Positions 1-49,315 of a stretch of 64,000 nt of DNA are shown here, one piece after another. Origin of the DNA: Schmidtea polychroa (Eukaryota); NCBI GenBank assembly GCA_044892525.1, contig CM097886.1, positions 45,012,001 through 45,076,000 of the forward strand, given 5' to 3'. Each line of letters begins with the position of its first letter. Position 1 is the first letter of the stretch. The translations under genes were made by a program, and so were the position numbers. The notes beneath the pieces are model-generated. The model had not been told where the DNA came from. It was given only the letters and a program-made list of their open reading frames with translations, and made no database searches.

Positions 1-10
1 AAACGGTGGT

Positions 11-3000
11 ATGTATTCCCCAGAAGATCTAGAAACAGCACGACTTAACGTACTCTTCCCAGCCAGACGAGAATCCATTTTGTCAAATATGGTTACAATA
101 ACTGGGGGAACAAATTATCAATCAGGCCCGAATTACGAACTGCTATTATCGCCAGACCATTTTCAACAAGCTACGTCAAACATGATGAAAGCCATGTGGG
201 GAAGATTTTTAGTTTTTGGACAAATGATGGCCGGAATATTGGGGATCATACTCATAATTCAGATAGTCAGAGTAATACTAACACAAATGTTAGCTTGTTT
301 TGATATATACAAGCGAGAAAAGAAAGTAAATTGGAAAATGATAGTAGGCTTTCTACCATTCCTAGCTAAAACCATGGTGTTACATGGTCACTCAAAGGAC
401 ATTCACCGAATAAAACGATTAATTAAAATATTAACAAAGATTAAAGGAACCGACGAAGAAGTAGGCAGACGATTCCGGAAAGTAATGTACGATGAAGCAA
501 CAAGACGACAATTGAAAAAGAATAAGCCAAAATTTTTGGACCGATTTAGAAGTCAATCATCTAACAGCAATAGTGACGACGATGATAACGGGAACGATAA
601 ATGTATATATCCAAACAGAAACCCAAACGAAAAACCAATGGAAACAGCACCATATTGGGAGAAGGAAAAGACAAACACCTGGATCGCCAATGGAAGCTAT
701 ATACCGCCAGATATCGTGGGACCACAAGCAGCTTTGACCATGACACAAAATATGTATCCGCAATTACCGAGTCAACCAGGTATGCATTATATGCCAACAC
801 GACGTACCAAAAGTGTAGATCAAGCAGATGACGTAAGAACAATAGCAGCGATGAGTCTACCTGGAGGTCCAGCAGTAACAGTTATGATTCAAATCAATGG
901 TAAAGAAACCAATGCTATGATAGACACCGGAGCTAATGTATCAGCGATAGCGATTAATCAAATTCCCAGTAAGCACTGGAAGGATATCGAATCAACAACA
1001 ATCCACATCATAGCATGTAGTAAAGAAACAGTAGACGTGGTCGGAAGATGGTGGACTACATTGAGATACCAGGACAACGAAATTGAAACGTATTTGGCAG
1101 TAATACCAAAACTTAGCGTACCATGCATAATCGGAACGGATCTGATGCCAGAATTATTAAAAGAAGTGGTAATAGACTTAACAACCATGTGTCTAAAGGA
1201 CAAAACCGGTAGAATATGCAAAATGAATGCAGTAATCAGATGTCCAGAAAAAATAATAGTACCAGCGAAATCGCAGATGATTTGTCAGATAAAGGTGGAT
1301 ACGGGTATGGAAGGAGAAGTTATCTTTGAACCAAGCAAGTCATTCGAAAAGCGACGAGAGTTACCACTCGCAAGGGAAATAATCACAATAAACCAAGAAG
1401 GAGTGATACCGCTCAACATCACGAATTTCGAAGAGGAAGACAAAATCATTTATGAGAACGAAAAATTGGGAAGATTGACCCCAATGATGGACATAGAATT
1501 ACCGAAAGTGACCAACGAGATGATCAAAGATGATGAATTATGGACAATAGATAGTATGTTGTTGACGAATGATGAAAAGAAAAAATTGCACCGATTGTTG
1601 GTAGAATATAAAGATATATTCGCCATCTCAGATTTAGATTTGGGTACATGCGATGTTACCCTACATGCAATACCACTCATAGATGAAACTCCAATTGCAC
1701 TAAGACCATACAAGCTAGCAGAAATGCAAAAAGAAATAGCCGAAGCAGAAGTACAAAAGATGCTAGACGCAAAAGTAATCGAACCGAGTTGCTCACCCTG
1801 GCAATTCCCAGTGGTCATGGTAAAAAAGAAAGATGGCACCCAACGATTCTGTATCGATTATCGGAAGTTAAACGCAGTAACCAAGAGAGATACCTATCCA
1901 TTGCCGGACATCAATGAGATGTTATTGATATTGCAAGGGGCAGCATATTTTACTTCTTTAGATCTAAAAAGTGGATACTGGCAGATTAAAGTCAAAGATG
2001 AGGACAAAGAGAAAACAGCTTTCACGTTGGGACGAGATCTATATCAATTCAGGAAAATGCCATTCGGACTGACCAATGCACCAGCATCATTTCAACGGTG
2101 TATGAACTTTGTCACTCATGGAATCAAACAATGTATGGTATATATTGATGATTTACTAATCTATTCAGCGACATTTGAACAACATCTGGAAGATATCCGA
2201 AACGTATTTATTAGATTAAGACAGTGGAAACTCAAACTCAAACCATCAAAATGCGATTGGGCAAAGGAAAAAGTCACGTTTTTGGGACACATAGTGTCAG
2301 CTAAAGGAAAGGAGCCAGATCCAAGAAACATTGAGAAAATAAAAACATTTCCAGCACCGAAAACTGTCACCCAAGTTCAGGAATTTCTAGGATTATGCGG
2401 ATACTATCGCAAATTTATCAAAAATTATGCAGGAATTGCAAAACCAATCCAGGAATTAGTAAAGAAGGACATTTCGTTCATTTGGGGGAAGGAACAACAA
2501 GAGGCGTTTGAAACGCTGAGAGACAAACTAATCGAAGCACCTATCCTCGTACACCCAGATTTTAAGAAGCCATTTCTATTGGCAACGGATGCAAGCGGGT
2601 ACGTGGCAGGCGCGATTCTGGGACAATTAGACGACGAAGGTAAAGAAAGAGTAATTGGATACTACAGTCGAACATTCAAAAAGCACGAGAAGAACTATTC
2701 GGTAACAGAACGAGAAGCATTGGCTATAATACAGGCAATCAAACATTTTCGATATTTGTTATGGGGACATGAGATATGTATAACCACAGATCATCAACCA
2801 TTAGTGTGGTTAGGGCAACATAAAGAAGCGTCCAGTAGACTGATGAGATGGGCCATGCAATTGCAAGAATACTCCCCATTTATAAAATTCAAAGCGGGAA
2901 GAGCAAATGCCAACGCCGATTGTATGTCAAGATTTATTTTTCCAGATTTGGTGGATTCAGAAATGCAACGCATATGCTTAATAGTAGCGGAAGATTTGGA

Positions 3001-6000
3001 TTTCTGTCAATTGCGAAAGGACCAACAAGAGGACGCGGAATTAAAACAAATTATCGATTATGTAAAAACCGGAAAGACAGATGTATACGCGAAAGACCAA
3101 AAATTAAAAGAACATATGGATAAACACCGACACCGATATATTATAGAGAAAGATTGGTTGCTGATAATGGATGGGGAAAAACGATTAATGTGTATACCGG
3201 AAAACCGACGAAAAGAGTTACTAACGCAATATCACGATGGGAGATTGGGAGGACATATGTCATCGAAAAAGACGTTAGCAAGAATGAAACAGAAATATTT
3301 TTGGCCTACGTTAACGGAAGATGTAACCGAATGGGTAAAAAATTGTCTAACTTGTGCGACCAGGAAGAATACTGGATCGAAATGGAAAGCACCTTTAACG
3401 CCAATGCCAGTACCAATAGAACCAATGACGATGATATCTATGGACGTCGTCGGTCCATTACCGGAATCGGATAGAGGAAACGTTTATATTTTAGTGATTA
3501 CAGACTTTCTCACGAAATTTCCAGAAGCATTCGCGATGCCAGACCAAAAAGCTAAAACAATCGCAAAAATTTTGGTACAAGAGATATGTTGCCGATATGG
3601 AATACCAAAACAGATATTAACCGATCAGGGAACTAATTTTATGAGTGAGATAATGAGCGAAGTAACAAATTACTTCAAAATCGCAAAATTAAGAACATCA
3701 CCGTATCATCCTCAAACCAATGGGATGACGGAAAGATTTAATGGAACACTTATACAAATGTTATCAAACTACGTCGACCGTCACCAACGAGATTGGGACG
3801 AATATATAAACCTATGTCTTATGGCGTACAGAATGTCGATTCACGCATCAACGAAAATGAGCCCATTCAAATTAATGTACGGAAGAGAATGTAACATGCC
3901 AATGGACCTGGAATACCAACCACCGATATCGCAGTATATGGAGATCGATGATTATGTTACGAAATTCAAGGAAAGAATGCAAGAAATTTGGGAAACTGCG
4001 GGATTAAATATCAAGTTCTACCAGGAAAGTTATAAAGATTTACACGATCGAAAGAAAAACGTGAAGCAACATACGTTTCAAACAGGTGATTGGGTGATGA
4101 TCGAGACCCCAGAATTAATTCCCGGAACCACAAGAAAATTACAACGGAACGGAAAAGGGCCATATGAGATCCTATTTGTAGGCGAAACCAACGTTAGAGT
4201 GAAATTGATAAATAATCCATTCACCAGGCCAATATACGAAAACGTGGCACGATGCAAATCAATTCCAAAAACAGCCACCAGTCAACCAGAAGGCCGTACA
4301 TTAACCACACGTTCGCAAACCTACAGAATGAACATGATGCAACAACTCGCAGAACCTATCACGGGACGATTGGGCATACAACCATCGGAAGCCGAAAAAA
4401 TCGTACGAGAGGTAAAGATAAAATTACCCGGATGGGCAAAAGATCGATTAGATTTCGAAATATTAGGAGGATTATTGACGATGATCGAAAACTATGCAAA
4501 TAGAGAAAGGACACACCCATTATTGCGAGTAGTCAAAAGCCAATGGCCAATATTATTTACAATAACAGATCATTACGGAGACACACCATTACACAAACTC
4601 ATGAAAGTAGCTAACAACGAGCAAATACTAGAAACAATAGAAGCATTTCACGACTGCAAGCGATCAACAGAACAAGAAAATACCCAAGGTTACACACCAT
4701 TAATGATAGCAGCAAACAGAGGCAAAACAAAAGACATCATAACCGCATTACTTGATACTGGATCAAAAATAACTACACAAGATCGCGAGCGGAAAAACGC
4801 ACTACATCATGCTATCGAAGGGAAAAGTACCGAAGCGTTCACATCGTTGATGGAGTTACTATCATATGAGGACAATCAAGAAGTTGGAAACATGTATGAT
4901 GGATTATTAACAGCGATCAAAGAGAAACTGACAACAATTACAGGAGTATTAATCACTTGGAGAAACCCAATTAAAAATAATTATATGATCAACGTAAACG
5001 AAGCATTCACGAAAGGGGAGAACACGCTTATGAGAGAAGCTATGAAAGGACATCATTTATTCGAAATCCCGAATCAATTGTTAGAACGAGGGATAACATT
5101 CACAAATCATAAGGATGAGCAGTTATTAAAAAAGCGAATAGACGCATTCGAAAAATCAATATTCCAATTTACTAACCAAGTACGAAATAAATATTGGGAA
5201 ACGGTAAGTGTGTTATACACGATGGATACAATGAACAACATCCGCGAGAATTACCTGGATATTATCCAAATACTTACAGCAGAGCAACGAATCAATAATC
5301 CAAACGGAAAGAAAACGAAAATAAGGTATGGGAAATCAAGGGAACCAAAGTCGACAACGAACCAAACGGTCACAAACAACGTCATCGAAACAAAATCAAT
5401 GAGTGTAGATCAAGAGGCAATAATACGCAAAGCGAAAGAAGTATTCTTTGAAGAAATGCTAGAGTTGTCAGACGAAATAATATTGTCAAAAATAATAAAA
5501 GCCGTACACACATACGCAAGAGATCAAACCACGGGTTTAGATATCGGGAAAATCAAAACCTTCTTGCCTCGAGCATTTACGATGGTGACGAAAGATTCAA
5601 GAACACCATTACAACAAGCAATACTAGCTGCAAAAGAGAATAGAGCAATAACGATCATGAGAATCCTTAGGGATATGGGCGAGGAAACCAATACGAAAAA
5701 TGAACAAGGCGAAACCGCCATGATGTATGCAGCTATAACGAAAATACACCCAAAAACACTCCACGTCCTACATCAATCAGGATCGAGACTAGACGAAAAA
5801 TCAAACGAAGGGAACTCCACATTGGACTGGGCAACCATACAGCCTAATTTAGGGATGATCAGATTTATTTGCAAAAATGCGACAAAAGAAGAAGTTGAAA
5901 ATATATGCAGAAACACATCTCAATTTCAATGGAATACGGTACGGAAAAATCTAGAGGCAATGAAATTATTATTAACATGGAGAGTACCACAAAGTAGTAA

Positions 6001-7102
6001 ATATGCGATAAATGTAAACGAATTCTACGAAAACGGAGAAAACGCGATGATAAAGAATACATTAACTAAAGGGGGGACACCAAAAATTATTTTAATAGTA
6101 TTAAATAGAGAAGACCTAAAATTCACGCAAAATCAGAACGAGCAACAACGAATTGGGAAACATCGTCGTATTCAATTGAGAGAGTTAGTTAAAGAATGGA
6201 ATAGAAAGAGACATGCTGCAACAGGTAGAAAAGAGTTTGAATTCGAAGCAAAGTTAGCAAGAAACAGAGTGTTAACAGCATATCGCAGACTATTGAACGA
6301 TATAAATGTCGAGGACGACATTTTAAACGACAGCGGGGGAGATAAACACGGTGACAATGACGGAAAAGGCCGAAAGGAGGATAAAGGGAAAAGAGAACCA
6401 GAAGAGGATAAACCGGAAAACAAGGATTCAGGTACGAGAGGAGAGGGAAACAGCCCGGGAACCAAGACCAAAGAGGAGGAAAAACCGAATAATGGAAAAC
6501 AGAGGGTATGCCTACCTTTCACTAACAAAGAAATGGAAACAAATATGATCTTAATGATAATCATGCTAACCATGATAGAGTTAGTAAGAGCTCATGGAGG
6601 GACGAGAACGATGAAAGAAACTAAAGAAGCGGGGAATCAAGATAGCAAAGAGGAAGAACTAAAACAAGAAAAGAAAAAGCAAGCACAAGAGCAGCAGTGG
6701 GAAGAATGGGACCTAAAGGAAAGGTGCATACTAGGAAGATGTATGTCTAGAGCGTATCAGAGATTAGTACTGGTAAATGAGGACACAGAACCGATAACAG
6801 AAGTAAGAATACAAGAAGCATACCGAAATCGAGAAGGGAAGAGAATAACGAACGTTAAAGGAAAAGAGGTGCACCTAGGAAAAGGGGGTGAAGTAGTAAT
6901 AACGCAGCTCCAACCAAGAAAAGAGCACAAAGTCTGTATTTCAAGATTAGGACCAGGTGAAAGATGCCATCAATATGTGACGCAGCAGCAGCCCCCGAAA
7001 GAATGCACGGTTTGTATCTGGAGGAACGAATCAAAAAGGGAATGCCGACGATACCCGGGGAAAAGAGGGAAGAAAAGAAAAAACCACGACGAAAAGGACT
7101 AA
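11..7102 (+). CDS. pol: Polyprotein (5'-incomplete): Env C-terminus/TM - aspartic protease - RT - RNase H - integrase - ankyrin repeats - C-terminal membrane module
   Basis: TM FLVFGQMMAGILGIILIIQIV (~205-300); protease IDTGA (~920); RT SPWQFPVVMV, LDLKSGYWQ, MPFGL, YIDD (2141-2152); RNase H LATDAS, YSVTEREALA; IN H-x6-H..CLTC, MDVVGP, TDQG, GMTERFN, GPY motif; ankyrin-type GDTPLH, GYTPLMIAA, KNALHHA, RTPLQQA, GETAMMYAA. Confidence 0.95.
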   Translation: MYSPEDLETARLNVLFPARRESILSNMVTITGGTNYQSGPNYELLLSPDHFQQATSNMMKAMWGRFLVFGQMMAGILGIILIIQIVRVILTQMLACFDIYKREKKVNWKMIVGFLPFLAKTMVLHGHSKDIHRIKRLIKILTKIKGTDEEVGRRFRKVMYDEATRRQLKKNKPKFLDRFRSQSSNSNSDDDDNGNDKCIYPNRNPNEKPMETAPYWEKEKTNTWIANGSYIPPDIVGPQAALTMTQNMYPQLPSQPGMHYMPTRRTKSVDQADDVRTIAAMSLPGGPAVTVMIQINGKETNAMIDTGANVSAIAINQIPSKHWKDIESTTIHIIACSKETVDVVGRWWTTLRYQDNEIETYLAVIPKLSVPCIIGTDLMPELLKEVVIDLTTMCLKDKTGRICKMNAVIRCPEKIIVPAKSQMICQIKVDTGMEGEVIFEPSKSFEKRRELPLAREIITINQEGVIPLNITNFEEEDKIIYENEKLGRLTPMMDIELPKVTNEMIKDDELWTIDSMLLTNDEKKKLHRLLVEYKDIFAISDLDLGTCDVTLHAIPLIDETPIALRPYKLAEMQKEIAEAEVQKMLDAKVIEPSCSPWQFPVVMVKKKDGTQRFCIDYRKLNAVTKRDTYPLPDINEMLLILQGAAYFTSLDLKSGYWQIKVKDEDKEKTAFTLGRDLYQFRKMPFGLTNAPASFQRCMNFVTHGIKQCMVYIDDLLIYSATFEQHLEDIRNVFIRLRQWKLKLKPSKCDWAKEKVTFLGHIVSAKGKEPDPRNIEKIKTFPAPKTVTQVQEFLGLCGYYRKFIKNYAGIAKPIQELVKKDISFIWGKEQQEAFETLRDKLIEAPILVHPDFKKPFLLATDASGYVAGAILGQLDDEGKERVIGYYSRTFKKHEKNYSVTEREALAIIQAIKHFRYLLWGHEICITTDHQPLVWLGQHKEASSRLMRWAMQLQEYSPFIKFKAGRANANADCMSRFIFPDLVDSEMQRICLIVAEDLDFCQLRKDQQEDAELKQIIDYVKTGKTDVYAKDQKLKEHMDKHRHRYIIEKDWLLIMDGEKRLMCIPENRRKELLTQYHDGRLGGHMSSKKTLARMKQKYFWPTLTEDVTEWVKNCLTCATRKNTGSKWKAPLTPMPVPIEPMTMISMDVVGPLPESDRGNVYILVITDFLTKFPEAFAMPDQKAKTIAKILVQEICCRYGIPKQILTDQGTNFMSEIMSEVTNYFKIAKLRTSPYHPQTNGMTERFNGTLIQMLSNYVDRHQRDWDEYINLCLMAYRMSIHASTKMSPFKLMYGRECNMPMDLEYQPPISQYMEIDDYVTKFKERMQEIWETAGLNIKFYQESYKDLHDRKKNVKQHTFQTGDWVMIETPELIPGTTRKLQRNGKGPYEILFVGETNVRVKLINNPFTRPIYENVARCKSIPKTATSQPEGRTLTTRSQTYRMNMMQQLAEPITGRLGIQPSEAEKIVREVKIKLPGWAKDRLDFEILGGLLTMIENYANRERTHPLLRVVKSQWPILFTITDHYGDTPLHKLMKVANNEQILETIEAFHDCKRSTEQENTQGYTPLMIAANRGKTKDIITALLDTGSKITTQDRERKNALHHAIEGKSTEAFTSLMELLSYEDNQEVGNMYDGLLTAIKEKLTTITGVLITWRNPIKNNYMINVNEAFTKGENTLMREAMKGHHLFEIPNQLLERGITFTNHKDEQLLKKRIDAFEKSIFQFTNQVRNKYWETVSVLYTMDTMNNIRENYLDIIQILTAEQRINNPNGKKTKIRYGKSREPKSTTNQTVTNNVIETKSMSVDQEAIIRKAKEVFFEEMLELSDEIILSKIIKAVHTYARDQTTGLDIGKIKTFLPRAFTMVTKDSRTPLQQAILAAKENRAITIMRILRDMGEETNTKNEQGETAMMYAAITKIHPKTLHVLHQSGSRLDEKSNEGNSTLDWATIQPNLGMIRFICKNATKEEVENICRNTSQFQWNTVRKNLEAMKLLLTWRVPQSSKYAINVNEFYENGENAMIKNTLTKGGTPKIILIVLNREDLKFTQNQNEQQRIGKHRRIQLRELVKEWNRKRHAATGRKEFEFEAKLARNRVLTAYRRLLNDINVEDDILNDSGGDKHGDNDGKGRKEDKGKREPEEDKPENKDSGTRGEGNSPGTKTKEEEKPNNGKQRVCLPFTNKEMETNMILMIIMLTMIELVRAHGGTRTMKETKEAGNQDSKEEELKQEKKKQAQEQQWEEWDLKERCILGRCMSRAYQRLVLVNEDTEPITEVRIQEAYRNREGKRITNVKGKEVHLGKGGEVVITQLQPRKEHKVCISRLGPGERCHQYVTQQQPPKECTVCIWRNESKRECRRYPGKRGKKRKNHDEKD

Positions 7103-7537
7103 GAAGGAAAGCACAAGAAAACCGGCGAGGAAGCTCAGGACAACTATGTTTCGGAGGAAGAGATAGAAAAAATACAAAAGATGGCAAAGGAGGGTATGAA
7201 CGAGGAAATAGCAAGAATACGAGAGATGATGGAAGGAAATGGCAAAAGAGGAAACGAGAAAAGTACAGAAGCGATATCAACATTAACAAACACTGAAAAA
7301 CCAGAGAGTATAAGCGTGAAGCAGATGATGTGGATCAGTGGGATAATAATAACAGGGGCATTCCTAATCATAACGGGGGGAACAATAAAAATAATTAAAG
7401 GTAAACGACATCGCGGAGAACTAGAGATGACCCGAATCAGAAATTTCCAACATCGAGTGAAACGACCAAGTGATATCAAACCAGAACAGTGGGTGGAGGC
7501 CTGGAACGCTCAGCGCCCTCCAAACTCACGTATATAG
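7103..7537 (+). CDS. In-frame C-terminal continuation of the polyprotein (TM helix plus short tail), cut off in copy A by a GAA>TAA stop
   Basis: Same frame as 11..7102; copy B reads DEKDEGGKHKK through this position (ORF 38161..38721); TM MMWISGIIITGAFLIITGGTIKII. Confidence 0.8.
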   Translation, partial: EGKHKKTGEEAQDNYVSEEEIEKIQKMAKEGMNEEIARIREMMEGNGKRGNEKSTEAISTLTNTEKPESISVKQMMWISGIIITGAFLIITGGTIKIIKGKRHRGELEMTRIRNFQHRVKRPSDIKPEQWVEAWNAQRPPNSRI

Positions 7538-8057: not shown

Positions 8058-8144
8058 ACCAAACCTAGCTTAAAAAATGTAAATAATTGTAATTAAAATA
8101 TCGAACCTGTATCGATAAGAACTATATGTATATATAATTATAGA

Positions 8145-9533
8145 ATGGATGAACGACAAAGAGAAGAGTTCAGAGAGATTGTCGAACAAGTCCGAAAATC
8201 TACAACGATCAAAATACACAAACATGTTATGTGCGGAATCTGTGAAAAGTTACTAAAAGAACCCCACCAAACCCAATGTGGATGCAGAGTATGTAAAGAA
8301 TGTATCAGTGAAGCAATAAAGAATAGACCACAGTGGTGCCCGGTGTGTAAAGAGACACTAATATCGAGTTTAAAAGACACTAACGAGGATAAAGCCGCAG
8401 TGAAAGACATGTTAAACACCAATCTGGGATGTAAAAATACCCCATGCGAATGGAAAGGAGTAATATGGAAAGTAGTGCAACATATGGGAGAATGTATGCA
8501 CAGAGTCGGCCAGTGTGAAAGGTGCCATAAAACCATTCGAGCAAGCGAAGAAAAAGAGCATCAAAGGCAGTGTGAAGAGAGATTAGAAAGATGTGAACAT
8601 TGTGGAGAAATAGATACGTGGAAAAATCTCATCATCAAACATCACAATGTCCAAGAGGAAAAGGTATGTGCAGAGTTCAGTGGGGAATGCCCAAACGGAT
8701 GTAACCAAGGGGAAATAATAAAGGTGGCACAGCATCTAAGGGAATGTGAAAAGAAAAGAATGACATGTGTACTAGGTAAATGGGGTTGTCAGAAACTACT
8801 ACACCGAGGGGAGTTACCACATCATTTAGTAGAAAATGCTTCAACCCACGCAGAAATGTGGTCGACTGCGTTACAAGAAAGGGAAGAGAAAGTAAAACAA
8901 ATGGAGATAGAGATAACATCGTTGAAAGTGTTAGTCAAAGAACTACTAGAAGAAAGGGAAGCGTTCGAAGAAGCCCGAGCAAACATAAAGATGCAAATAA
9001 ACCGAATAGAAATCAGTAATAATCAGGCCAAGGAGCTACATCAGAAAATACGGGAAATAAATCTAAATGAGATAACCCCAACAGCACCCTACATATGGAA
9101 AATAACGGGAGTAAAAGAAAGAATACGAAAAGCAAAAACCGGAGAAGAGACAAGAATAACAAGTCCTGCATTCCATTCTTGGAAAAATGGGTACAAAATG
9201 AAAATGAAGATATATCCCAACGGGGACGGAACCGGATTAGATACACACTTTTCGATTTTCTTTCTGTTATGTAAAGGGGAATACGACGACATAATAGAGT
9301 GGCCGTTCCAGGCAAAAATCGATATTGCACTAATGAATGACCGAAGCATCCACGAACAAAGCTTCAAGACAACTGGAAACCAAATGTGTTACCAGAGACC
9401 TACGGAAGAAGAAGGATCAGCAACAGGAGCACCTACGTTCATCCTACAACAAAAAGTAGAAGATATGGCAAGAAATGACACGGTGTATATCAGGATGACC
9501 GTGAGGAAAGAGGAGAAGGGTAGAACGGAGTAA
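8145..9533 (+). CDS. TRAF: TNF receptor-associated factor homolog (RING - TRAF zinc fingers - coiled coil - MATH), intronless
   Basis: RING CGIC-x11-CGC-x2-CKEC-x11-CPVC; TRAF zinc fingers (CKNTPCEWKG..H..EC, CERC..H..QCEERLERCEHC); MATH motifs YIWKI, SPAFHS..GYKMKMKIYPNGDG.G.DTHFSIFF.LCKGEYD..IEWPF, DTVYIRMTV. Confidence 0.95.
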   Translation: MDERQREEFREIVEQVRKSTTIKIHKHVMCGICEKLLKEPHQTQCGCRVCKECISEAIKNRPQWCPVCKETLISSLKDTNEDKAAVKDMLNTNLGCKNTPCEWKGVIWKVVQHMGECMHRVGQCERCHKTIRASEEKEHQRQCEERLERCEHCGEIDTWKNLIIKHHNVQEEKVCAEFSGECPNGCNQGEIIKVAQHLRECEKKRMTCVLGKWGCQKLLHRGELPHHLVENASTHAEMWSTALQEREEKVKQMEIEITSLKVLVKELLEEREAFEEARANIKMQINRIEISNNQAKELHQKIREINLNEITPTAPYIWKITGVKERIRKAKTGEETRITSPAFHSWKNGYKMKMKIYPNGDGTGLDTHFSIFFLLCKGEYDDIIEWPFQAKIDIALMNDRSIHEQSFKTTGNQMCYQRPTEEEGSATGAPTFILQQKVEDMARNDTVYIRMTVRKEEKGRTE

Positions 9534-9726
9534 CCAATCGAATAATGTTGTATATAATAATCTGTATATATCGGTGTATATAACCAATAAAATATTATAT
9601 AATAATAGTATGAAAACCCTAAATACGAAAACCCAAAAATGATGCGAAAATTTCCGAAGAACCCGTAACTAATGAATAAATTCTTTTTCCATAATAAAAA
9701 GATTAATCGATATCTATGATTTAGAG

Positions 9727-10782
9727 ATGACACAAGAGAAAATATCCGGAACTACGATAGCCCCAACCAATGCCAACAAAACACAAATTCCTCGAGAATA
9801 TAACGAAAAATGGAACAAAGTAATGTTCCAACTAACTAACCTCACCCGAAATCACATCGAAGAAGCTAGAGAGGATGAGAACAGTAAATACCAATGGCTA
9901 ATACACAATTTAAGAGCGGAAGCAGAAGCATGCAAAAGAGCATCAAAATGGGCGTCATTAGAAAATACCCGCCAAGAAGCGCACAGCCATTATTTAAAGC
10001 AGCTGGTGCAGGAAGCGAGAAAGAGGCTCACTGACGAAAACGCAAAACGCGAAGCGGAAAAGCAAATAGAAGGAAGGAAAATGATGCATTTATTGACAGA
10101 GGCCAGAAAATGGAAAAGACAAAATAGTGAAATGAAAAAAGAGATGAAAGAATTGCCCATGAGACTCGGATATGAAAGCGAACAGGGCAAATGGGAGGAA
10201 AATTTAATAATAAAGGAAGAACTGAAACGGTTGAGAAAGGTCGCCGCTCGAAGCCAAACATGGCAGATGAAGGCCATGGAGTTCGAACGACATTTGGCAA
10301 TAAAATGCGACATAAGAGAGCACGAGAATGCCGCAATGGAAGAGATGATAACCCAACAAGCAGGACGGGTTGTGGAATTAGTAAATCAGGTAGAAGAGAT
10401 GAAAAGAGACCTTAATGGATTACAAGGATCGCTGGAACAAAGAAACATGGTCCTAGCTGGAAAAAACAGAAAATTAGAAAACGAAAGGAAAATGTACACC
10501 GAAAATATCAAAAACTTGGAAATAGAGATTGAAAAATGGAAGGGCGACGAGAAAATCAAGGCCCTAGACAGACAAATAGAGATGAAAGACGAAGAGACAA
10601 GGTATCTCACCTACCTGCTCGACGAAGAGCTGAATATCACTCGAGCCCTAAGGGACGAAGTTAATGAATTGAGAGCTCAAATCCCCCAATATCACCTACC
10701 ATATGACCCTATTGCGATACAGTTGTATCCAGTGGTCGATAGTGATGAAGGTTACGTGGGCCAGGAGGAAACCTTCGTATAA
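9727..10782 (+). CDS. Cargo ORF 3, 351-aa long coiled-coil protein of unknown function
   Basis: Intact with identical length in copy B (29745..30800). Confidence 0.8.
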   Translation: MTQEKISGTTIAPTNANKTQIPREYNEKWNKVMFQLTNLTRNHIEEAREDENSKYQWLIHNLRAEAEACKRASKWASLENTRQEAHSHYLKQLVQEARKRLTDENAKREAEKQIEGRKMMHLLTEARKWKRQNSEMKKEMKELPMRLGYESEQGKWEENLIIKEELKRLRKVAARSQTWQMKAMEFERHLAIKCDIREHENAAMEEMITQQAGRVVELVNQVEEMKRDLNGLQGSLEQRNMVLAGKNRKLENERKMYTENIKNLEIEIEKWKGDEKIKALDRQIEMKDEETRYLTYLLDEELNITRALRDEVNELRAQIPQYHLPYDPIAIQLYPVVDSDEGYVGQEETFV

Positions 10783-10825
10783 GGTGATTAAAAAGATAAA
10801 AAACTAAAAATCGGGACGTATACCC

Positions 10826-10856
<31 letters not shown>

Positions 10857-10912
10857 AAAGTATTGTAAAAGTATTCAAGGGACTGTAACCCGAACTATTA
10901 AATTTTATATAA

Positions 10913-11656
10913 ATGTATATGTATAAGTCGCACTATAGTGCACCATTAACTGTACATATTATAGATATGAAAATCGAGGAAATAATAGAAATTATGAGCG
11001 ACGTAGAAGAGGGAGAGATTGAGGCAGAAACAACGGAAACACAAACGTTAAAGACCGAGTTACGGGAAGAGAAGTACGAAAACGAGAGACTGGTAAACAA
11101 GTATATAGAAGATCGGAAAATAATAAAGATATTAAAGAAAGAATGCAGAGTACTAGGGGAAGTAAAAAGAGAAGCAGAAGAGGAAAATAAACGACTTCAC
11201 GAACAGAGAAAACGAGGGAGAAATTGGGAGAAGATTGCGGAAGAATTATGGCAAGAAAGGGCCAGTAGAAAGGCAGACGAAGTGATTAGCGATTATTGGA
11301 AAACCGAGGCACGGAAATACCAAGAAAGCCTGAAGGAGTTACAACTCCAACTACACCAAAAACAAAGGGAATGCGAGATAATGAAAAAAATGAACAACAA
11401 ATACCAAGAAATCGATAACGGAGAAGACGAGGAAAGGGGAAATGATTTCTTACAAATACTAAACCATAAAAACCTGGAAAGAGCAACACAGGAAATAAAA
11501 GTGTTAAAAGGAAAAATAAAGTTCCTAGAACAACAGATAGACGAAAAAGATAAACAACTAGAAGTACTGCCAGAATTGAGAAAACGGGTAATAAAAGCGG
11601 AAACGGAAGTGATGAGAGCGTCTGAGAAAGCCCGTAAAAAGAAATCCCGACTATAA
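10913..11656 (+). CDS. Cargo ORF 4, coiled-coil protein (likely start MKIEE at 10967)
   Basis: Homologous open ORF in copy B (28875..29630); E/K-rich heptads. Confidence 0.75.
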   Translation: MYMYKSHYSAPLTVHIIDMKIEEIIEIMSDVEEGEIEAETTETQTLKTELREEKYENERLVNKYIEDRKIIKILKKECRVLGEVKREAEEENKRLHEQRKRGRNWEKIAEELWQERASRKADEVISDYWKTEARKYQESLKELQLQLHQKQRECEIMKKMNNKYQEIDNGEDEERGNDFLQILNHKNLERATQEIKVLKGKIKFLEQQIDEKDKQLEVLPELRKRVIKAETEVMRASEKARKKKSRL

Positions 11657-12362: not shown

Positions 12363-12900
12363 CAGTAATGTGATGTATATAATTCCGGTCACCCTAAGTG
12401 GCCACTGCTTGCTTATATTTGTCTTATTATCTGTTTAATTAAAGTATTAGTCAGTTAACTTATTTTATGTCTGTATGTATTTTGATTGTGGAAGTTTTGT
12501 GGTATAACAACAGAGGTATGATTAGAATGTATGACATTATGTGAATTGCGGGACGCAATTTTGATGGGTCCCCGAGTGATTTGTTGGGCTGAGCCGAAGG
12601 GTAGCTGGGAGATTAGGTCAAATGTACTAAAGTAAAATAAAGAAATAAAATAAACAAAGTTACGAACAAAATAGAATAGAACATAAGAAAACAATAATTA
12701 GAAAATAGGAATTAAAACAAAAAAATATAAAAATAAGAAAAATTAAAATAGGACAATAGAATGACGAAAAATAACGTAAAATATATTAGATAATAAGGAA
12801 AATAAATAAAAACATAATTTTAATCAAGAAAATAGGAAGAAATAACCCAAAAACAAGGAAAATAAATTAAATTAATAAAATAAGGCGGTATTCAATTCTG

Positions 12901-12933
12901 ATTGGTCCGCGTAAATAGAAAACTAATATATAA
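12901..12933 (+). promoter_or_regulatory. LTR core promoter: inverted CCAAT (ATTGG) plus TATA box
   Basis: ATTGGTCCGCGTAAAT..TATATAA conserved at 27625-27657 (-), in the solo LTR (-) and in variant form at ~21755-21787 (-). Confidence 0.7.
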
Positions 12934-13419
12934 GCAGACATTAAAATCATTATAATTACCGTTAATCCAACAACTACTATAGGTAAGTGTATTTTAATTA
13001 CCATTACCGTTAATCCAACAACTACTATAGAACTAGCGATTCACAGCAACATACACTGACTTACAGGATCATCACAAGGACTATTCCAAGACTCAAGAAA
13101 CTTCATCTAAATCTATATTCGATTCTAGTATTAATTAATTCTACTTAGTACTTTTCGACTCAGCCTATTTGAAACACTCGGTAAGGATTTTTGGATTTCT
13201 TATTTTGAATTTATAAGTAATGGTATAATCTAATTATAATTTAAATTTAAAGATCTTACCTTTTCTTTTCGTTTGATTTCAAGCATGTTATTTAATTTAA
13301 TGATATGGTTATTTAATAATAAATGATTTACTTTCTAGGAATTATTGATTTTCCTTTGATGAATTATTTTTATGAGTTATTATTATGTTAATTAAATTTT
13401 TGAGGAACGTGGCGTTGAG

Positions 13420-13545
13420 ATACTCTATGTCATGGTGTGAGGTGCCTTCGGGAGCTCCACCGGTGGACATAGGGTATTTCAATCACGCAGCTAGATTGGG
13501 CCGAAATGTGAGGGCTTCTTCACGGGTCCAATCGCTGAAGGTGCG
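13420..13545 (+). ncRNA. Conserved structured RNA element in the LTR (two long hairpins, one capped by C-UUCG-G)
   Basis: Stem ATACTCTATGTC/GACATAGGGTAT; homolog at 57890-58020 (-) shows compensatory and wobble changes. Confidence 0.6.
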
Positions 13546-15055
13546 ACCAAAATCTATAGGCAAATTGTGGCAGAAAATTGATAGTCAGATAGTGATTGAA
13601 AACAAAGATATGTAATAAATGAATCGGAGGATTCTTAGGTATTCGCGCAGTGATTGAGGGCGTCACACCATCGTCTCCAGATATCGTTTCCACTAAGCCA
13701 AATTTTCTCTATCATCGATGTAAGTTGTGTGTCAAACAATCGTTCGGACATTAGTGGGGCTATATGTGATATATCTTCGATGTTCATGCTTGCGCTCGGA
13801 ACCTATTCCTACAAATTTTCGGCCTATGACCTTTTGAACTGTTATTTCTTTCATCTAAAAGTTCTCTTGAAGACATAGTCGCAAGGAAGCTCAAAGTAGA
13901 TTGCTTCAGATAATTATTAGGATTATTCAAAATGACTGTTTACGAATAGATTGTAGAACCACGTAAAATTATTATTATTAAATATTATCATCTCTAGTTA
14001 GGTATTTGATGATGCATGTGATTAAATATTTATTTTAATGAATTTTGATCTTTTAGTGGGCTCTTAGATACGAAATTATTTCAATGGAAGAATGTTTTAA
14101 CAATTAAATCTCTATTTAAATCGACAATGTTCTTATTGGTAAAATATCAAATTTTCAAAGGAAATAGTCAGTATTTAGCTATGAATTAATAATAATTCCA
14201 GTGAACTTATATCGTTTTAGAGGTTTATTAGGTCGTGATGAATGTTATTGCACAGTAATTTAGATTTATGTTTTAGAACAAGTTTTTATTAATTATCCAC
14301 TGTTTTATTAAGTCGTTTAGGGTTAATAATCTATTTACTTGGTTTTGACAATGAAATATTTGAAATCTTTAGAGATAAATGATATCAAAGGTTATTTCTT
14401 TAAATTAGTTTATTTAAGAAGTTATTTTATTCATTGTGAGGATATCAGTGAAGGAAATTTATGATTTTAATTAGATTTCTAGAAATTAAATCGGTTAAAT
14501 ATCAGTTAATCTATTGAAGGAATATTGTTATCGGATGGATAAATGATATTTTGCTAAATTACCTTTGCTAAATATTATTTTAAATGACTAAAAATAACAA
14601 AATTAACCAATATTCATATATTTTTCCCACAAAATATCCATGTTTTGGTTACTCAAACATCTGAAATTTCTCGCAAAGATATATTACGTCTAATGATCAT
14701 CTAATTAAATTAGAAAAGAAATATAACCCTATATGAACATGTATTTTTAACTAATAAGCACCTTATTTGGTTAAATGATAACCATATTTCTATTATGACT
14801 CCTTTAAATATTTTTGCCTCGAACAAATTTACTCCAAATGATAAAGAATTTAAAATTATCAATGAATAATGACCATGTTTTTCTCATATTAATAACTATT
14901 GTAACGAACATTAGATGAATAAATTACCTTTTGCTTTAAATGTCTAAAAGGTTAACCAATAAATTAGTCGCTCGACATAAGTGTAAAGTTACATTTAAAA
15001 TATTCACGAATTTCTGATCATCTCACTAAATTACCTAAGAATTTCTAAATGATTA

Positions 15056-17194: not shown

Positions 17195-17195
<1 letters not shown>

Positions 17196-17259
<64 letters not shown>

Positions 17260-17607: not shown

Positions 17608-17659
<52 letters not shown>

Positions 17660-17660
17660 T
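17196..17660. repeat. (AAT)n microsatellite arrays (also ~18880-19040)
   Basis: Long pure AAT runs at 17196-17274, ~17394-17420 and 17608-17660. Confidence 0.95.
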
Positions 17661-19007: not shown

Positions 19008-19057
<50 letters not shown>

Positions 19058-38160: not shown

Positions 38161-41100
38161 CTATATACGTGAGTTTGGAGGGCGCTGAGCGTTCCAGGCC
38201 TCCACCCACTGTTCTTGTTTGATATCACTTGGTCGTTTCACTCGATGTTGGAAATTTCTGATTCGGGTCATCTCTAGTTCTCCGCGATGTCGTTTATCTT
38301 TAATTATTTTTATTGTTCCCCCCGTTATGATTAGGAAGGCCCCTGTTATTATTATCCCACTGATCCACATCATCTGCTTCACGCTTATACTCTCTGGTTT
38401 TTCCTTGTTTGTTAATGTTACTATTGCTTCTGTACTTTTCTCGTTCCCTCTTTTGCCATTCCCTTTCATCATCTCTCGTATTCTTGCTATTTCCTCGTTC
38501 ATACCCTCCTTTGCCATCTTTTGTATTTTTTCCATCTCTTCCTCCGAAACATAGTTGTCCTGAGCTTCCTCGCCGGTTTTCTTGTGCTTTCCTCCTTCGT
38601 CCTTTTCGTCGTGGTTTTTTCTTTTCTTTCCTCTTTTCCCCGGGTATCGTCGGCATTCTCTTTTTGATTCGTTCCTCCAGATACAAACCGTGTATTCTTT
38701 CGGCGGCTGCTGCTGCGTCACATATTGATGGCATCTCTCACCTGGTCCTAATCTTGAAATACAGACTTTGTGCTCTTTTCTAGGTTGGAGCTGCGTTATT
38801 ACTACTTCACCACCTTTTCCTAGGTGTACCTCTTTTCCTTTAACGTTCGTTATTCTCTTCCCGTCTCGATTTCGGTATGCTTCTTGTATTCTTCTGTTAT
38901 TGGTTCTGTGTCCTCATTTATCAGTACTAGTTTCTGATACGCTCTAGACATGCATCTTCCTAGTATGCACCTTTCCTTTAAGTCCCATTCTTCCTTTAAA
39001 TCCCACTGCTGCTCTTGTGCTTGCTTTTTCTTTTCTTGTTTTAGTTCATCCTCTTTGCTATCTTGATTCTCCGCTTATTTGGTTTCTTTTATCGTTCTCG
39101 TCCCTCCATGAGCTGTTACTAACTCTATCATGGTAAGCATAATTATCATTAATATCATATTTGTCTCTATTTCTTTGTTAGTGAAAGGTAGGCATACCCT
39201 CTGTTTTCCATTATTCGGTTTTTCCTCCTCTTTGGTCTTGGTTCCCGGGCTGTTTCCCTCTCCTCTCGTACCTGAATCCTTGTTTTCCGGTTTATCCTCT
39301 TCTGGTCTCTTTCTATTCCATTCTTTAACTAACTCTCTCAATTGAATACGACGATGTTTCCCAATTCGTTGTTGCTCGTTCTGATTTTGCGTGAATTTTA
39401 GGTCTTCTCTATTTAATACTATTAAAATAATTTTTGGTGTCCCCCCTTTAGTTAATGTATTCTTTACCATCGCGTTTTCTCCGTTTTCGTAGAATTCGTT
39501 TACATTTATCGCATATTTATTATTTTGTGGTACTCTCCATGTTAATAATAATTTCATTGCTTCTAGATTTTTCCGTACCGTATTCCATTGAAATTGAGAT
39601 GTGTTTTTGCACATATTTTCAACTTCTTCTTTTGTCGCATTTTTGCAAATAAATCTGATCATTTCCAAGTTTGGCTGTATGGTTGCCCAGTCCAATGTGG
39701 AGTTCCCTTCGTTTGATTTGTCGTCTAGTCTCGATCCTGATTGATGTAGGATGTGGAGTGTTTTTGGGTGTATTTTCGTTATAGCTGCATACATCATGGC
39801 GGTTTCGCCTTGTTCATTTTTCGTGTTGGTTTCCTCGCCCATCTCCCCAAGGATTCTCATGATCGTTATTGCTCTATTCTCTTTTGCAGCTAGTATTGCT
39901 TGTTGTAGAGGTGTTCTGGAATCCTTTGTTACCATCGTAAATGCTCGAGGCAAGGTTTTGATTTTCCCGATATCTAAACCCGTGGTTTGATCTCTTGCGT
40001 ATGTGTGTACGGCTTTTATTATTTTTGACAATATTATTTCGTCTGACAGCTCTAGCATTTCCTCGAAGAATACTTCTTTTGCTTTGCGTATTATTGCCTC
40101 TTGATCTATACTCATTGATTTGGTTTTGATGACGTTGTTTGTGACCGTTTGGTTCGTTGTCGACTTTGGTTCCCTTGATTTCCCATACCTTATTTTCGTT
40201 TTCTTTCCGTTTGGATTATTGATTCGTTCCTCTGCTGTAAGTATTTGGATAATATCCAGGTAATTCTCGCGGATGTTGTTCATTGTATCCATCGTGTATA
40301 ACACACTTACCGTTTCCCAATATTTATTTCGTACTTGGTTAGTAAATTGGAATATTGATTTTTCGAATGCGCCTATTCGCTTTTTTAATAACTGTTCATC
40401 TTTATGATTTGTGAATTTTATCCCTCGTTCTAGTAATTGATTCGGGATTTCGAATAAATGATGTCCTTTCATAGCTTCTCTCATCAGCGTGTTCTCTCCT
40501 CTCGTGAACGCTTCGTTTACGTTGATCATATAATCATTTTTAATTGGATTTCTCCATGTAATTAATATTCCGGTAATTGTTGTCAGTTTTTCTTTGATCG
40601 CTGTTAACAATCCATCGTACATGTTTCCGACTTCTCGATTGTCCTCATATGATAGTAGTTCCATCAATGACGTGAACGCCTCGGTACTTTTCCCTTCGAT
40701 AGCATGATGTAGTGCATTTTTCCGCTCGTGGTCTTGTGTAGTTATTTTTGATCCAGTATCAAGTAATGCGGTTATAATGTCTTTGGTTTTGCCTCTGTTT
40801 GCTGCTATCATTAATGGTGTGTAACCTTGGTTGTTTTCTTGTTCTGTTGATCGCTTGCAGTCGTGAAATGCTTCTATTGTTTCTAGTATTTGCTCGTTGT
40901 TACCTACTTTCATGAGTTTGTGTAATGGTGTGTCTCCATAATGATCTGTTATTGTAAATAATATTGGCCATTGACTTTTAACTACTCGCAATAACGGATG
41001 TGTCCTCTCTCTGTTCGCATAATTTTCGATCATCGTCAATAATCCTCCTAATATTTCGAAATCTAATCGATCTTTTGCCCATCCAAGTAATTTTATCTTT

Positions 41101-44068
41101 ACCTCTCGTACGATTTTTTCCGCTTCCGATGGTTGTATGCCCAATTTCTGTTTCATTCTTGCTAACGTCTTTTTCGATGACATATGTCCTCCCAATCTCC
41201 CATCGTGATATTGCGTTAGTAACTCTTTTCGTCGGTTTTCCGGTATACACATTAATCGTTTTTCCCCATCCATTATCAGCAACCAATCTTTCTCTATAAT
41301 ATATCGGTGTCGGTGTTTATCCATATGTTCTTTTAATTTTTGGTCTTTCGCATATACCTCCGTCTTTCCGGTTTTTACATAATCGATAATCCGTTTCAGT
41401 TCTACGTCTTCTTGTTGGTCCTTTCGCAATTGACAGAAATCCAAATCTTCCGCTACTATTAAGCATATGCGTTGCATTTCTGAATCCACCAAATCTGGAA
41501 AAATAAATCTTGACATACAATCGGCGTTGGCATTTGCTCTTCCCGCTTTGAATTTTATAAATGGGGAGTATTCTTGCAATTGCATGGCCCATCTCATCAG
41601 TCTACTGGACGCTTCTTTATGTTGCCCTAACCACACTAATGGTTGATGATCTGTGGTTATGCATATGTCATGTCCCCATAGTAAATATCGGAAGTGTTTG
41701 ATAGCTTGTATTATAGCCAATGCTTCTCGTTCTGTTACCGAATAGTTCTTTTCGTGCTTTTTGAATGTTCGACTGTAATACCCGATTACTCTCTCTCTTT
41801 TCCTTCATCGTCTAATTGTCCCAGAATCGCGCCTGCCGCGTACCCGCTTGCATCCGTTGCCAATAGAAATGGCTTCTTAAAATCTGGGTGTACGAGGATA
41901 GGTGCTTTGATTAGTTTATCTCTCAGCGTTTCAAACGCCTCTTGTTGTTCCTTCCCCCAAATGAACGAAATGTCCTTCTTTACTAATTCCTGGATTGGTT
42001 TTGCAATTCCTGCATAATTTTTGATAAATTTGCGATAGTATCCGCATAATCCTAGAAATTCCTGAACTTGGGTGACAGTTTTCGGTGCTGGACATGTTTT
42101 TATTTTCTCAATGTTTCTTGGGTCTGGCTCCTTTCCTTTAGCTGACACTATGTGTCCTAAAAACGTGACTTTTTCCTTTGCCCAATCGCATTTTGAAGGT
42201 TTGAGCTTGAGTTTCCATTGTCTTAATCTAATAAATACATTTCGGATATCCTCCAGATGTTGTTCGAATGTCGCTGAATAGATTAGCAAATCATCAATAT
42301 ATACCATACATTGTTTGATTCCATGAGTGACGAAGTTCATACACCTTTGAAATGATGCTGGTGCGTTGGTCAGTCCGAATGGCATTTTTCTGAACTGATA
42401 TAGATCTCGTCCCAGCGTGAAAGCTGTTTTCTCTTTGTCCTCATCTTTGACTTTAATCTGCCAGTATCCACTTTTTAGATCTAAAGAAGTAAAATATGCT
42501 GCCCCTTGCAACATCAATAACATCTTATTGATGTCCGGCAATGGATAGGTATCTCTCTTGGTTACTGCGTTTAACTTCCGATAATCGATACAGAATCGAT
42601 GCGAGCCGTCTTTCTTTTTTACCATGACCACTGGGAATTGCCAAGGTGAGCAACTCGGTTCGATTACTTTTGCGTCTAGCATCTTTTGTACTTCTGCTTC
42701 GGCTATTTCTTTTTGCATTTCTGCTAGCTTGTATGGTCTTAATGCAATTGGAGTTTCATCTATGAGGGGTATTGCATGTAGGGTAACATCGCATGTACCC
42801 AAATCTAAATCTGAGATGGCGAATATATCTTTATATTCTACCAACAATCGGTGCAATTTTTTCTTTTCATCATTCGTCAACAACATACTATCTATTGTCC
42901 ATAATTCATCATCTTTGATCATCTCGTTGGTCACTTTCGGTAATTCTATGTCCATCAATGGGGTCAATCTTCCCAATTTTTCGTTCTCATAAATGATTTT
43001 GTCTTCCTCTTCGAAATTCGTGATGTTGAGCGGTATCACTCCTTCTTGGTTTATTGTGACTATTTCTCTTGCGAGGGGTAATTCTCGTCGCTTTTCGAAT
43101 GATTTGCTTGGTTCAAAGATAACTTCTCCTTCCATACCCGTATCCACCTTTATCTGACAAATCATCTGCGATTTTGCTGGTACTATTATTTTTTCTGGAC
43201 ATCTGATTACTGCATTCATTTTGCATATTCTACCGGCTTTGTCTTTTAGACACATGGTTGTTAAGTCAATTACGACTTCTTTTAATAATTCTGGCATCAG
43301 GTCCGTTCCGATTATGCATGGTACGCTAAGTTTTGGTATTACTGCCAAATACGTTTCAATTTCGTTGTCCTGGTATCTCAATGTAGTCCACCATCTTCCG
43401 ACCACGTCTACTGTTTCTTTACTACATGCTATGATGTGAATTGTTGTTGATTCGATATCTTTCCAGTGCTTACTGGGGATTTGATTAATCGCTATCGCTG
43501 ATACATTAGCTCCTGTGTCTATCATAGCATTGGTTTCTTTACCATTGATTTGAATCATGACTGTTACTGCTGGACCTACAGGTAAACTCATCGCTGCTAT
43601 TGTTCTTACGTCATCTGCTTGATCTACACTTTTGGTACGTCGTGTTGGCATATAATGCATACCGGGTTGACTCGTTAATTGCGGATACATGTTTTGTGTC
43701 ATGGTCAAAGCTGCTTGTGGTCCCACGATATCTGGCGGTATATAGCTTCCATTGGCGATCCAGGTATTTGTCTTTTCCTTTTCCCAATATGGTGCCGTTT
43801 CCATTGGTTTTTCGTTTGGGTTTCTGTTTGGATATAGACATTTATCGTTCCCGTTATCATCGTCGTCACTATCGCTGTTAGATGATTGGCTTCTAAATCG
43901 GTCCAAAAATTTTTGCTTATTCTTTTTCAATTGTCGTCTTGTTGCTTCGTCGTACATTACTTTCCGGAATCGTCTGCCTACTTCCTCGTCGGTTCCTTTA
44001 ATCTTTGTTAGTATTTTGATCAATCGCTTTATCCGATGGATGTCTTTTGAGTGACCATGTAATACCAT
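38161..44068 (-). pseudogene. pol: Pol-ankyrin-membrane-module part of the copy B polyprotein, decayed
   Basis: GA slippage at ~41790; in-frame 1,074-bp deletion of the integrase core (equals A 3296-4369); 186-bp deletion (A 6212-6397); GAA>TAA at 39075; indels near 38900. Confidence 0.92.
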
Positions 44069-45951: not shown

Positions 45952-46069
45952 ATTTATTGATGCTTTTCTGCTTGCGGGATCTTTCATCGGTAGTTCCCAT
46001 TCTAGTTCATTTAACAGCTTTTTCAATCTAACTTGCATCGATCTTTCTTGCTCATTTTTTCGTGGCGCT

Positions 46070-46518
46070 TGTATCAGTCTTTTCCATCCTCCGGCACGAA
46101 TAATATGTGGTTCAATAGTATTCTCTATGATTGAAACGGTCATTTCCACATGATTTGCAAACTGTTTATTTGGTATTTTCCTCGCAGCCAGTCCCATCAA
46201 ATTATACATCAAATACGTGATTACCACTAGATGATGTTCGTCATCATTTGCATTTGTCGTGAGCTGTTCAATCACTCTCTTCGTTTCATCCCAATCCGTT
46301 TTGGTGGTTTTCGTTTTCTCTTTGATTAACTTTGGGATTATCCCCGAAACGATGTGCCATAATTGTCTAGCTTCCGTACTGGCTACTTTCCGTTGCCACA
46401 AACGTCTAAGTTGTGGGTTTGTTATTATTAACATATCTTTGATCAATTCTCGTATCCATTTTTCTCCTCTTTCGATCGTTGGTTGGGCTTCCTTTAGATC
46501 CCATACTATTTTATCCAA
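46070..46518 (-). CDS. Bcl-2-like helical domain (degenerate BH1, recognisable BH2) immediately before the Env signal peptide
   Basis: VIEQL..helix..IENTIEPHIIRAGGWKRL parallels VVEELF..NWGR..LNRHLHTWIQDNGGWDAF. Confidence 0.5.
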
Positions 46519-46779
46519 TTTTTATAATCGGACTTGCCCTTGTTCTTGCTTTAATTGTTCTTTGGTTTTGAACTCAGACTTTTCTCCTTGTTTCTTAGGT
46601 CTTCCTTTTGCCCGTTTTTCCATCATCGTTCCGGCTTCTCTGGTATTTTCGTAATTCGGATTTCTTTCGTTATCCGTTCTGGGTAATGAGCTATCGTTAT
46701 TTCTTAGCCACTCATTCCATTCATCTATTATTTTATCGGTTTGACCTTCTGGTGTTACTTTCGTTGGTTCTCTTTGCTT

Positions 46780-49227: not shown

Positions 49228-49315
49228 TTGGTGGTTTAACTGACTGATTTGCTCCTTGTTTTGGTTGTTTCCCTCTTTTATTCTTATTTCCGTTTCTTCA
49301 TGTTTCTTTTCTATT

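Follow-up and report, generated by a model that had tools for sequence, protein, structure and literature searches.

Retroelements that carry their envelope gene between gag and pol have been described in flatworms and in other animals. The env gene was reported in frame between gag and pol in the planarian Burro elements in 2019 (Arkhipova and Yushenova, PMC6431247), and elements of the order GAG-ENV-POL with a gB-type envelope protein (Env) are listed for Platyhelminthes, Nematoda and Bryozoa (Chary and Hayashi 2026, PMC13524379). The main text of the latter gives the order of the open reading frames (ORFs), and in the parts available makes no mention of in-frame, fused, single ORF or fibronectin. 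Here we analyse a stretch of 64,000 nucleotides from Schmidtea polychroa (contig CM097886.1, positions 45,012,001 to 45,076,000; hereafter the window), which contains two copies of one element of this kind: copy A, which reads along the + strand from base 1, and the inverted copy B. A previous sequence-only reading of the window had proposed a single gag-env-pol polyprotein with a signal-like segment before Env and with Pol behind the transmembrane segment of Env. This organization stands, but the novelty that it implied does not, since the layout is already published, in frame for Burro and as a gene order for the GAG-ENV-POL errantiviruses.

The element has long terminal repeats (LTRs), a Ty3-type capsid and a Pol with the order protease, reverse transcriptase, RNase H, then integrase (PR-RT-RH-IN), and thus belongs to Ty3/gypsy. 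The similarities to Burro/GYPSM1 comprise one very large ORF1 (4,873 aa in Burro1 vs 4,617 aa here, with Burro ORFs of about 4,900-5,100 aa), env in frame, a Gag with three CCHC knuckles, a ubiquitin/SUMO-like and Bcl-2-like region (here below cut-off and putative, respectively), PR-RT-RH-IN and ankyrins. They extend to TRAF/MATH and RING cargo (here on accessory ORFs), to size (~27 kb here, near 30 kb in Burro) and to the hundreds of candidate places in the genome. On the other hand, TRAF/MATH is a separate downstream ORF here and lies inside ORF1 in Burro1. The Burro source (PMC6431247) likens the Burro env to gypsy Env and to mononegavirus glycoproteins, whereas Pfam files the window Env as PF24664; it mentions, in the parts available, neither signal segments nor a membrane cassette at the C-terminus of Burro. 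The window element is likened to Burro by its layout, and not by sequence to any numbered Burro.

The gB-type errantiviruses of PMC13524379 share with our element the gene order and a gB-type class III Env (PF24664, E 2e-70 here). Among the six Smed errantiviruses listed there, Smed_errantivirus_5 is nearest to the window family, about half identical by eye, and two Env motifs of the window family are absent from those supplements. Two further families of S. polychroa, families 2 and 3, are introduced below; over the Env stretch compared by eye, family 2 is almost letter for letter Smed_errantivirus_2 and family 3 resembles Smed_errantivirus_1. The stand-alone chuvirus-like glycoproteins (PF24664, Monjiviricetes_fusion; 600-720 aa, 20-28% identity) also present an N-terminal signal region, a transmembrane segment and a helix behind it, but they are separate proteins with short tails, while Env is here embedded in a polyprotein.

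The gag-env-pol frame and its conservation

In copy A, positions 2-7099 (+) form one open frame of 2,366 codons, in which Pfam recognizes in order the end of the PF24664 fusion glycoprotein, RVP, RVT_1, RNase H, integrase and ankyrin, with a transmembrane segment following the glycoprotein. The C-terminus of the glycoprotein is therefore in frame with PR-RT-RH-IN, as had been claimed. The earlier count of 2,508 codons for 11-7534 is right in number; this stretch is not uninterrupted, as it passes a stop at 7,100-7,102. The junction strings of the two copies also differ in the way described (A 365-377, B 44,076-44,065), with a frameshift in B near 44,068, and the count of ~2,100 codons from the gag Met to the start of A holds.

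Both A and B, ~96-97% alike across their shared coding parts, are broken copies. Copy B has in-frame stops at 50,012-14, 46,780-82 and 46,522-24 and a further frameshift near 49,320-49,390, and is without the integrase core. The upstream flank of A, proposed as a test for one uninterrupted ORF, does not complete such an ORF: the flank contains the same two gag breaks as B, and the long ORF of copy A including this flank is 3,635 codons. Because these breaks fall in a stretch that is nearly identical in A and B, we regard them as one event and the two copies as not independent.

Other copies do contain the uninterrupted frame. We compared three samples: the nine copies that, behind A itself, match the junction best (junction-picked); 32 of the 40 best DNA matches to mid-env, chosen so as not to select on the junction, with the query itself and 7 copies already examined left out (env-picked); and, from the 40 top-ranking reverse transcriptase matches, 20 of the 21 rows not yet sampled (RT-picked). 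Four of the nine junction-picked copies show one ORF of 4,732 codons from the capsid to the C-terminus, with the first Met at codon 116 and thus a product of 4,617 aa, and the transmembrane segment and the protease share one frame in 8 of 9. The frame is open from capsid to RT in 20/32 env-picked and 14/20 RT-picked copies, from the Bcl-like region to env in 29/32 and 18/20, and from env to PR in 29/32 and 19/20, so that the large majority of these copies are in frame between env and pol. The segment from capsid to knuckles is open in 31 of the 32 env-picked copies. Env is found at full spacing in all 20 RT-picked copies.

By these counts the fusion in copy A is neither a read error nor a product of chance, nor is it private to that copy. 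A programmed stop or frameshift at the junctions is rejected as well, as the breaks are scattered (so are the ORF ends among the env-picked copies) and the gag breaks common to A and B belong to their near-identical stretch.

A search of the genome with PF24664, in which 68 of 2,580 candidates were scored and 60 analysed, gave 60 loci from families 2 and 3, with ~45% Env identity. Here the frame is open from capsid to RT in 16/50 and from env to RT in 32/53 loci with both matches.

Selection was assessed on variants shared among copies. Their pN/pS lies between 0.01 and 0.09 in each of the 11 segments; it is 0.04 for the Env tail and 0.08-0.09 for the C-terminal cassette, the latter from 9 copies only. 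Every part of the polyprotein is under purifying selection.

Six database proteins of 2,855-4,029 aa combine Env, two or three protease-like domains, RT, RNase H and integrase in one chain, and their Env is 37-39% identical to that of the window family. A search of cluster representatives returned 963 Env relatives, with mostly polyproteins or fragments at the top of the list and stand-alone glycoproteins of ~650 aa lower down. Six polyproteins (P0001, P0002, P0003, P0005, P0006 and P0010) have two or three aspartic-protease-like domains; in several homologous polyproteins one of these stands behind the integrase, where the window family has its ankyrins.

Predicted membrane topology of the polyprotein

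The single 4,617-aa ORF encodes Gag followed by accessory domains, then a class III fusion glycoprotein with Pol and the ankyrins behind it, and at its C-terminus a predicted membrane protein. The Gag capsid and three CCHC knuckles lie in copy B at 49319..50740 (-), with one stop inside (PF03732, E 7e-12; PF19259; PF00098). The first Met is only 13 residues ahead of the capsid motif, leaving no room for a matrix domain, and no matrix-like region was found before the capsid. A broken accessory region follows (46000..49389, -), with a ubiquitin/SUMO-like segment (PF11976, E 0.001, below cut-off) and a putative Bcl-2-like segment, labelled after PMC6431247. The Pfam search of the window proteins gave no match to the Bcl-2, dUTPase or BIR domains attributed to Burro, and phmmer found no PDB relative of the Bcl-2-like segment, though no profile search aimed at Bcl-2 was made. 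Next come SP1, a predicted internal signal-like segment (45898..45951, -), and the Env ectodomain with its transmembrane segment TM1 (44140..45897, -; PF24664, E 2e-70; pN/pS 0.01), unbroken as far as the frameshift behind it. By phmmer, Env has no PDB relative. The pol, the ankyrin region and the C-terminal membrane cassette of copy B remain in pieces at 38161..44110 (-).

Copy A enters the window within the C-terminal part of the class III (gB/chuvirus-like) ectodomain and the membrane-proximal region (2..223, +; PF24664, E 5e-17, aa 2-104). All further features lie on the same strand. The predicted TM1 (224..301) has a peak KD19 hydropathy of 2.53 and is conserved in 17 polyprotein rows. 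The Env tail (302..841) joins it in one ORF to the protease and includes a weaker hydrophobic helix at 332-382 (KD19 1.31); pN/pS is 0.04 for TM1 and tail together. The aspartic protease (881..1156; PF00077, E 4e-10) is followed by reverse transcriptase and RNase H (1820..2872; PF00078, E 6e-36; PF17917, E 1e-38), by the integrase zinc finger and core (3194..3712; PF17921, E 7e-21; PF00665, E 9e-13) and by an ankyrin-repeat region fused after the integrase (4502..6001; PF12796, E 4e-17; pN/pS 0.09). The chain ends with a predicted second signal-like hydrophobic segment, SP2 (6545..6592; KD19 1.59, its position shared with family 2 and homologues), a predicted lumenal ectodomain (6593..7324), which contains the stop of copy A and is part of an open frame from integrase to TM2 in other copies, and a predicted TM2 with a short basic tail at the end of the long ORF (7325..7537; KD19 1.73; pN/pS 0.08).

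We consider it fairly probable that the element is a Burro-type giant Ty3/gypsy retroelement (a GAG-ENV-POL errantivirus) whose polyprotein spans the membrane four times, has its signals cleaved and delivers Pol through Env. By the simplest parity, it is plausible that Gag is cytosolic, Env lumenal, Pol cytosolic, the second ectodomain lumenal and the tail cytosolic. The chain would thus cross the membrane of the endoplasmic reticulum (ER) four times, with Pol as a cytosolic loop between TM1 and SP2. SP1 would direct Env into the lumen and leave the Gag precursor tail-anchored, in analogy to core-E1 of hepatitis C virus (HCV), and this anchor on Gag may stand in for the missing matrix domain. 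TM1 would bring the chain back to the cytosol, SP2 would send a small, probably FN3-like ectodomain into the lumen, and TM2 would close the chain with a short cytosolic tail. We infer that signal peptidase cuts at these segments and that packaging proceeds through Env: three products, namely Gag-accessory-SP1, Env-Pol-SP2 and the second surface protein, would arise by cleavage at ~1:1:1 on a single patch of membrane, and particles would bud there. The protease of the element would then free CA, NC, PR, RT and IN at boundary motifs. A protease-site-like pattern occurs at the CA/NC, pre-PR, RH/IN and IN/ankyrin boundaries; the copy before PR lies immediately ahead of it at 842..859 in copy A. 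Its position suggests that maturation would release Pol from Env, the tie to Env being a precursor state. Env would act in fusion, with attachment or signalling left to the second surface protein.

The comparison with HCV (PMC5402940) is an analogy only: there too the capsid precursor ends in the signal segment of a glycoprotein, signal peptidase cleaves, and the enzymes downstream are cytosolic. Flaviviridae differ in that there is no homology, and in that the element has a class III fusogen, a PR-RT-RH-IN that needs packaging, and a second membrane protein after it.

In all 18 polyproteins examined, a hydrophobic stretch immediately precedes the conserved [YF]DC motif at which Env starts. 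In 77 of 90 stand-alone homologues the same motif is at most 60 residues from the Met (median 25), and since these proteins start at the same place, SP1 appears to be a retained signal region. Small residues recur a few positions ahead of the motif in most polyprotein rows, as is expected of a signal cleavage site. The net charge is more positive before SP1 in 5/7, before SP2 in 5/7 and after TM2 in 6/7 cases.

The topology proposed in the sequence-only reading was incomplete, as it missed the signal-ectodomain-transmembrane cassette after the integrase. This cassette is in one frame from integrase to TM2 in 7 of 9 other copies of the window family, and it is also present in family 2 (4/4 stretches), in 6/6 homologous polyproteins and in P0013, being less clear in P0020. 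Since the polyprotein ends with this cassette, a membrane anchor is predicted on either side of Pol. The second ectodomain has, with moderate confidence, an FN3 fold in relatives: in Atlas the family-2 ectodomain reaches 0.93 with FN3 clusters (all ten family hits), a profile built from nine repeat units picked by hand finds neogenin, Tie2 and fibronectin in the PDB (best E 2.5e-4), and the model of the P0002 ectodomain matches tandem FN3 structures (best E 1e-6; as a single domain, best Z 8.9, rmsd 3.1 over 82 residues). Set against this, the Atlas recognition for the family-2 ectodomain is low (1548), the units of the profile were chosen around the motif, and the P0002 model has a mean pLDDT of 53.5. 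For the window family's own ectodomain there is no Pfam match and no usable Atlas hit, and the homologue ectodomain profile aligns to it with an hhalign probability of 0.5%. The same profile gave 1.3% against family 2, the single-sequence fold of the family-2 ectodomain reached a pLDDT of 33, and 2 short relatives of the second ectodomain were found. Position and one motif thus weakly suggest that the window family's domain is FN3-like, with a candidate unit near 6,719-6,990 (+). The C-terminus reads S/T-x-V/L/I in 6 of 9 proteins (window, family 2, P0001, P0002, P0005 and P0157; not P0003, P0006 and P0013), a pattern that we take to be of the class I PDZ-binding type. The literature covered contained no paper describing either the FN3 cassette or the four-segment topology, though this coverage did not extend to subscription journals, to Repbase reports or to the figure supplements of PMC13524379.

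Several observations weigh against our preferred account. The topology is based on hydropathy and parity, and a conserved weaker hydrophobic helix after TM1 (KD19 0.8-1.6) could change the parity. The charge around TM1 is more positive before than after it in 5/7 cases, which lends no support to a cytosolic tail, and the SP2 of the window itself departs from the charge rule. Glycosylation sequons, whose counts add nothing in favour of the topology, are depleted in Env (11 vs 19.9 expected), with a mild rise in the second ectodomain (28 vs 19.7) and 70 vs 58.7 expected in Pol. A Gag:Pol ratio of 1:1 is unusual for retroviruses. In addition, taking the best-scoring copies has favoured young ones, and a few of the rows are duplicates that lie next to each other.

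Three other explanations have to be weighed against the four-pass polyprotein with cleaved signals. SP1 might be a signal anchor that is cleaved late or not at all, so that Gag-SP1-Env-TM1-Pol forms one hairpin and Pol stays joined to Gag through the lumenal Env loop until maturation. Some gB-type ectodomains are flanked by two transmembrane domains instead of a signal peptide (PMC13524379), HCV can still bud when core-E1 cleavage is blocked (PMC5402940), and SP1 of the window is the least hydrophobic of the 18 (KD11 2.05). Nevertheless, the equivalent of SP1 sits at the N-terminus of stand-alone homologues. The small residues ahead of the [YF]DC motif resemble a cleavage site, and a tethered N-terminus might impede the trimerisation of class III fusogens; we consider this hairpin unlikely. 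To a threading in which the chain truly spans the membrane a second time at the helix behind TM1, or which misplaces Pol in some other way, or to a programmed stop or frameshift at the junction that would make the in-frame state incidental, we give very little weight. The helix is kept in polyproteins and stand-alone homologues alike, the charge bias of TM1 is of no help, and breaks at or close to the junction occur in B and in a few other copies. However, TM1 outscores the helix in 16 of 17 rows (the two are equal in 1), the helix holds Lys and Pro, and the loop before it is strongly basic in the window family. Moreover, RT and integrase need the cytosol and the nucleus, the breaks are not clustered, and the in-frame state is that of the large majority.

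Alternatively, the single genomic ORF could serve several messages, with splicing or internal starts giving Gag alone and an env-less Gag-Pol for movement inside the cell, and Env-Pol as a minor product. An env-less Gag-Pol would solve the 1:1 stoichiometry, and in run X2 one contig joint of low depth leaves out 44,108-45,911, which is nearly the Env ectodomain with its transmembrane segment, though this may represent a single env-deleted copy. The joint occurs in one contig at ~0.1% of the local depth, its ends are not GT-AG, and the run is of unknown kind. The excess of first-look candidates for RT over env (843 vs 547) points in the same direction, but these are not copy numbers and RT is common to other families. 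Furthermore, the full spacing of env in every RT-picked copy indicates that env-less genomes are uncommon among young copies, and the Env tail is conserved as much as Pol, so that we hold this explanation to be improbable.

Returning to the four-pass polyprotein, a broader formulation is possible although doubtful, and we put it forward tentatively. These elements may be enveloped retroviruses of a second design: a four-pass polyprotein cut by host signal peptidase, a matrix-less tail-anchored Gag, a class III fusogen to whose tail all of Pol is attached, and, separately, an FN3 protein for attachment whose tail is of the PDZ type. Pol would be packaged only through Env, assembly on the ER would be 1:1:1, and entry would use two glycoproteins as in herpesviruses.

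Terminal repeats and neighbouring features

The 3' LTR of copy A lies at 12582..13973 (+) and matches stretch L002:7131-8484 over 1,402 columns with 5 mismatches and 3 gaps. Its partner is ~12.7 kb upstream of the window start. This direct repeat of 1.35-kb is present at both ends of the copy, begins with TGT, and its outer ends span about 26.6 kb; the few differences between the LTRs suggest a young insertion. The 3' end of the LTR, the primer-binding site and the target-site duplication of copy A were not made out on inspection by eye. First-look candidate places genome-wide number 329-843 depending on the query and are not copy numbers.

Over gag, A and B are almost identical (stretch L001:3,450-6,126 vs window 51,250-48,584); elsewhere they are 2-5% apart, the leader more, and their downstream ORFs and LTRs diverge by 11-28%. 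Such near-identity amid divergent surroundings is a sign of recombination or gene conversion. In copy B, the 3' terminal region (26,840-27,978) matches two separate places on the 5' side, 53,850-54,260 and 58,136-58,874 (98.5% and 99.8%), and a 176-bp direct repeat occurs at 53,672-53,847 and 54,925-55,100. The split matches together with the direct repeat suggest a rearranged LTR structure.

Behind the long ORF, copy A has a separate TRAF-like accessory ORF with RING and MATH (8097..9533, +; PF21355, E 3e-26; PF00097) and two more accessory ORFs from the ORF list (9676..11656, +), charged and coiled-coil-like by composition, with no Pfam match above cut-off. Upstream of gag, copy B has an ORF with an IAP-type C-terminal RING finger (52,870-53,457, -; PF13920, E 6e-11). 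A 299-aa ORF without a Pfam match lies upstream of both copies (55,427-56,326, -, and L002:9,793-9,998); it is 75% alike between them over 206 bases and is probably another accessory gene. In the contigs of run X2, a 52-base skip with GT-AG ends on the sense strand of the element (51,122-51,173, -) could be a leader intron or a deletion variant.

Copy B harbours, behind the TRAF ORF, a small nested gypsy element that has no env (30,921-36,088, -), with gag at 34,681-35,868, pol at 31,133-34,378 and two identical 245-bp LTRs, which indicate a very recent insertion. AT-rich tandem and satellite-like repeats lie between the copies at 16,900-20,500. Downstream of one family-3 copy (L118, - strand, 77-1,534 of the reversed stretch) there is an ORF of 486 aa that looks, by its motif, like a DEDD-type exonuclease.

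Significance for planarian retroelements

With the layout already in print, what is added here is a census of copies and data on selection, and not a new system. Burro transcripts are present in planarian tissues and are raised on PIWI knock-down (PMC8532177, in which we found no mention of particles or virus-like in the parts available), so that native material for proteomics and microscopy exists. If the four-pass topology is true, a reverse-transcribing element packages its enzymes through its envelope protein and carries a second surface protein, departing from the Gag-Pol rule. Such a topology would also account for the retention of env in all the young copies sampled.

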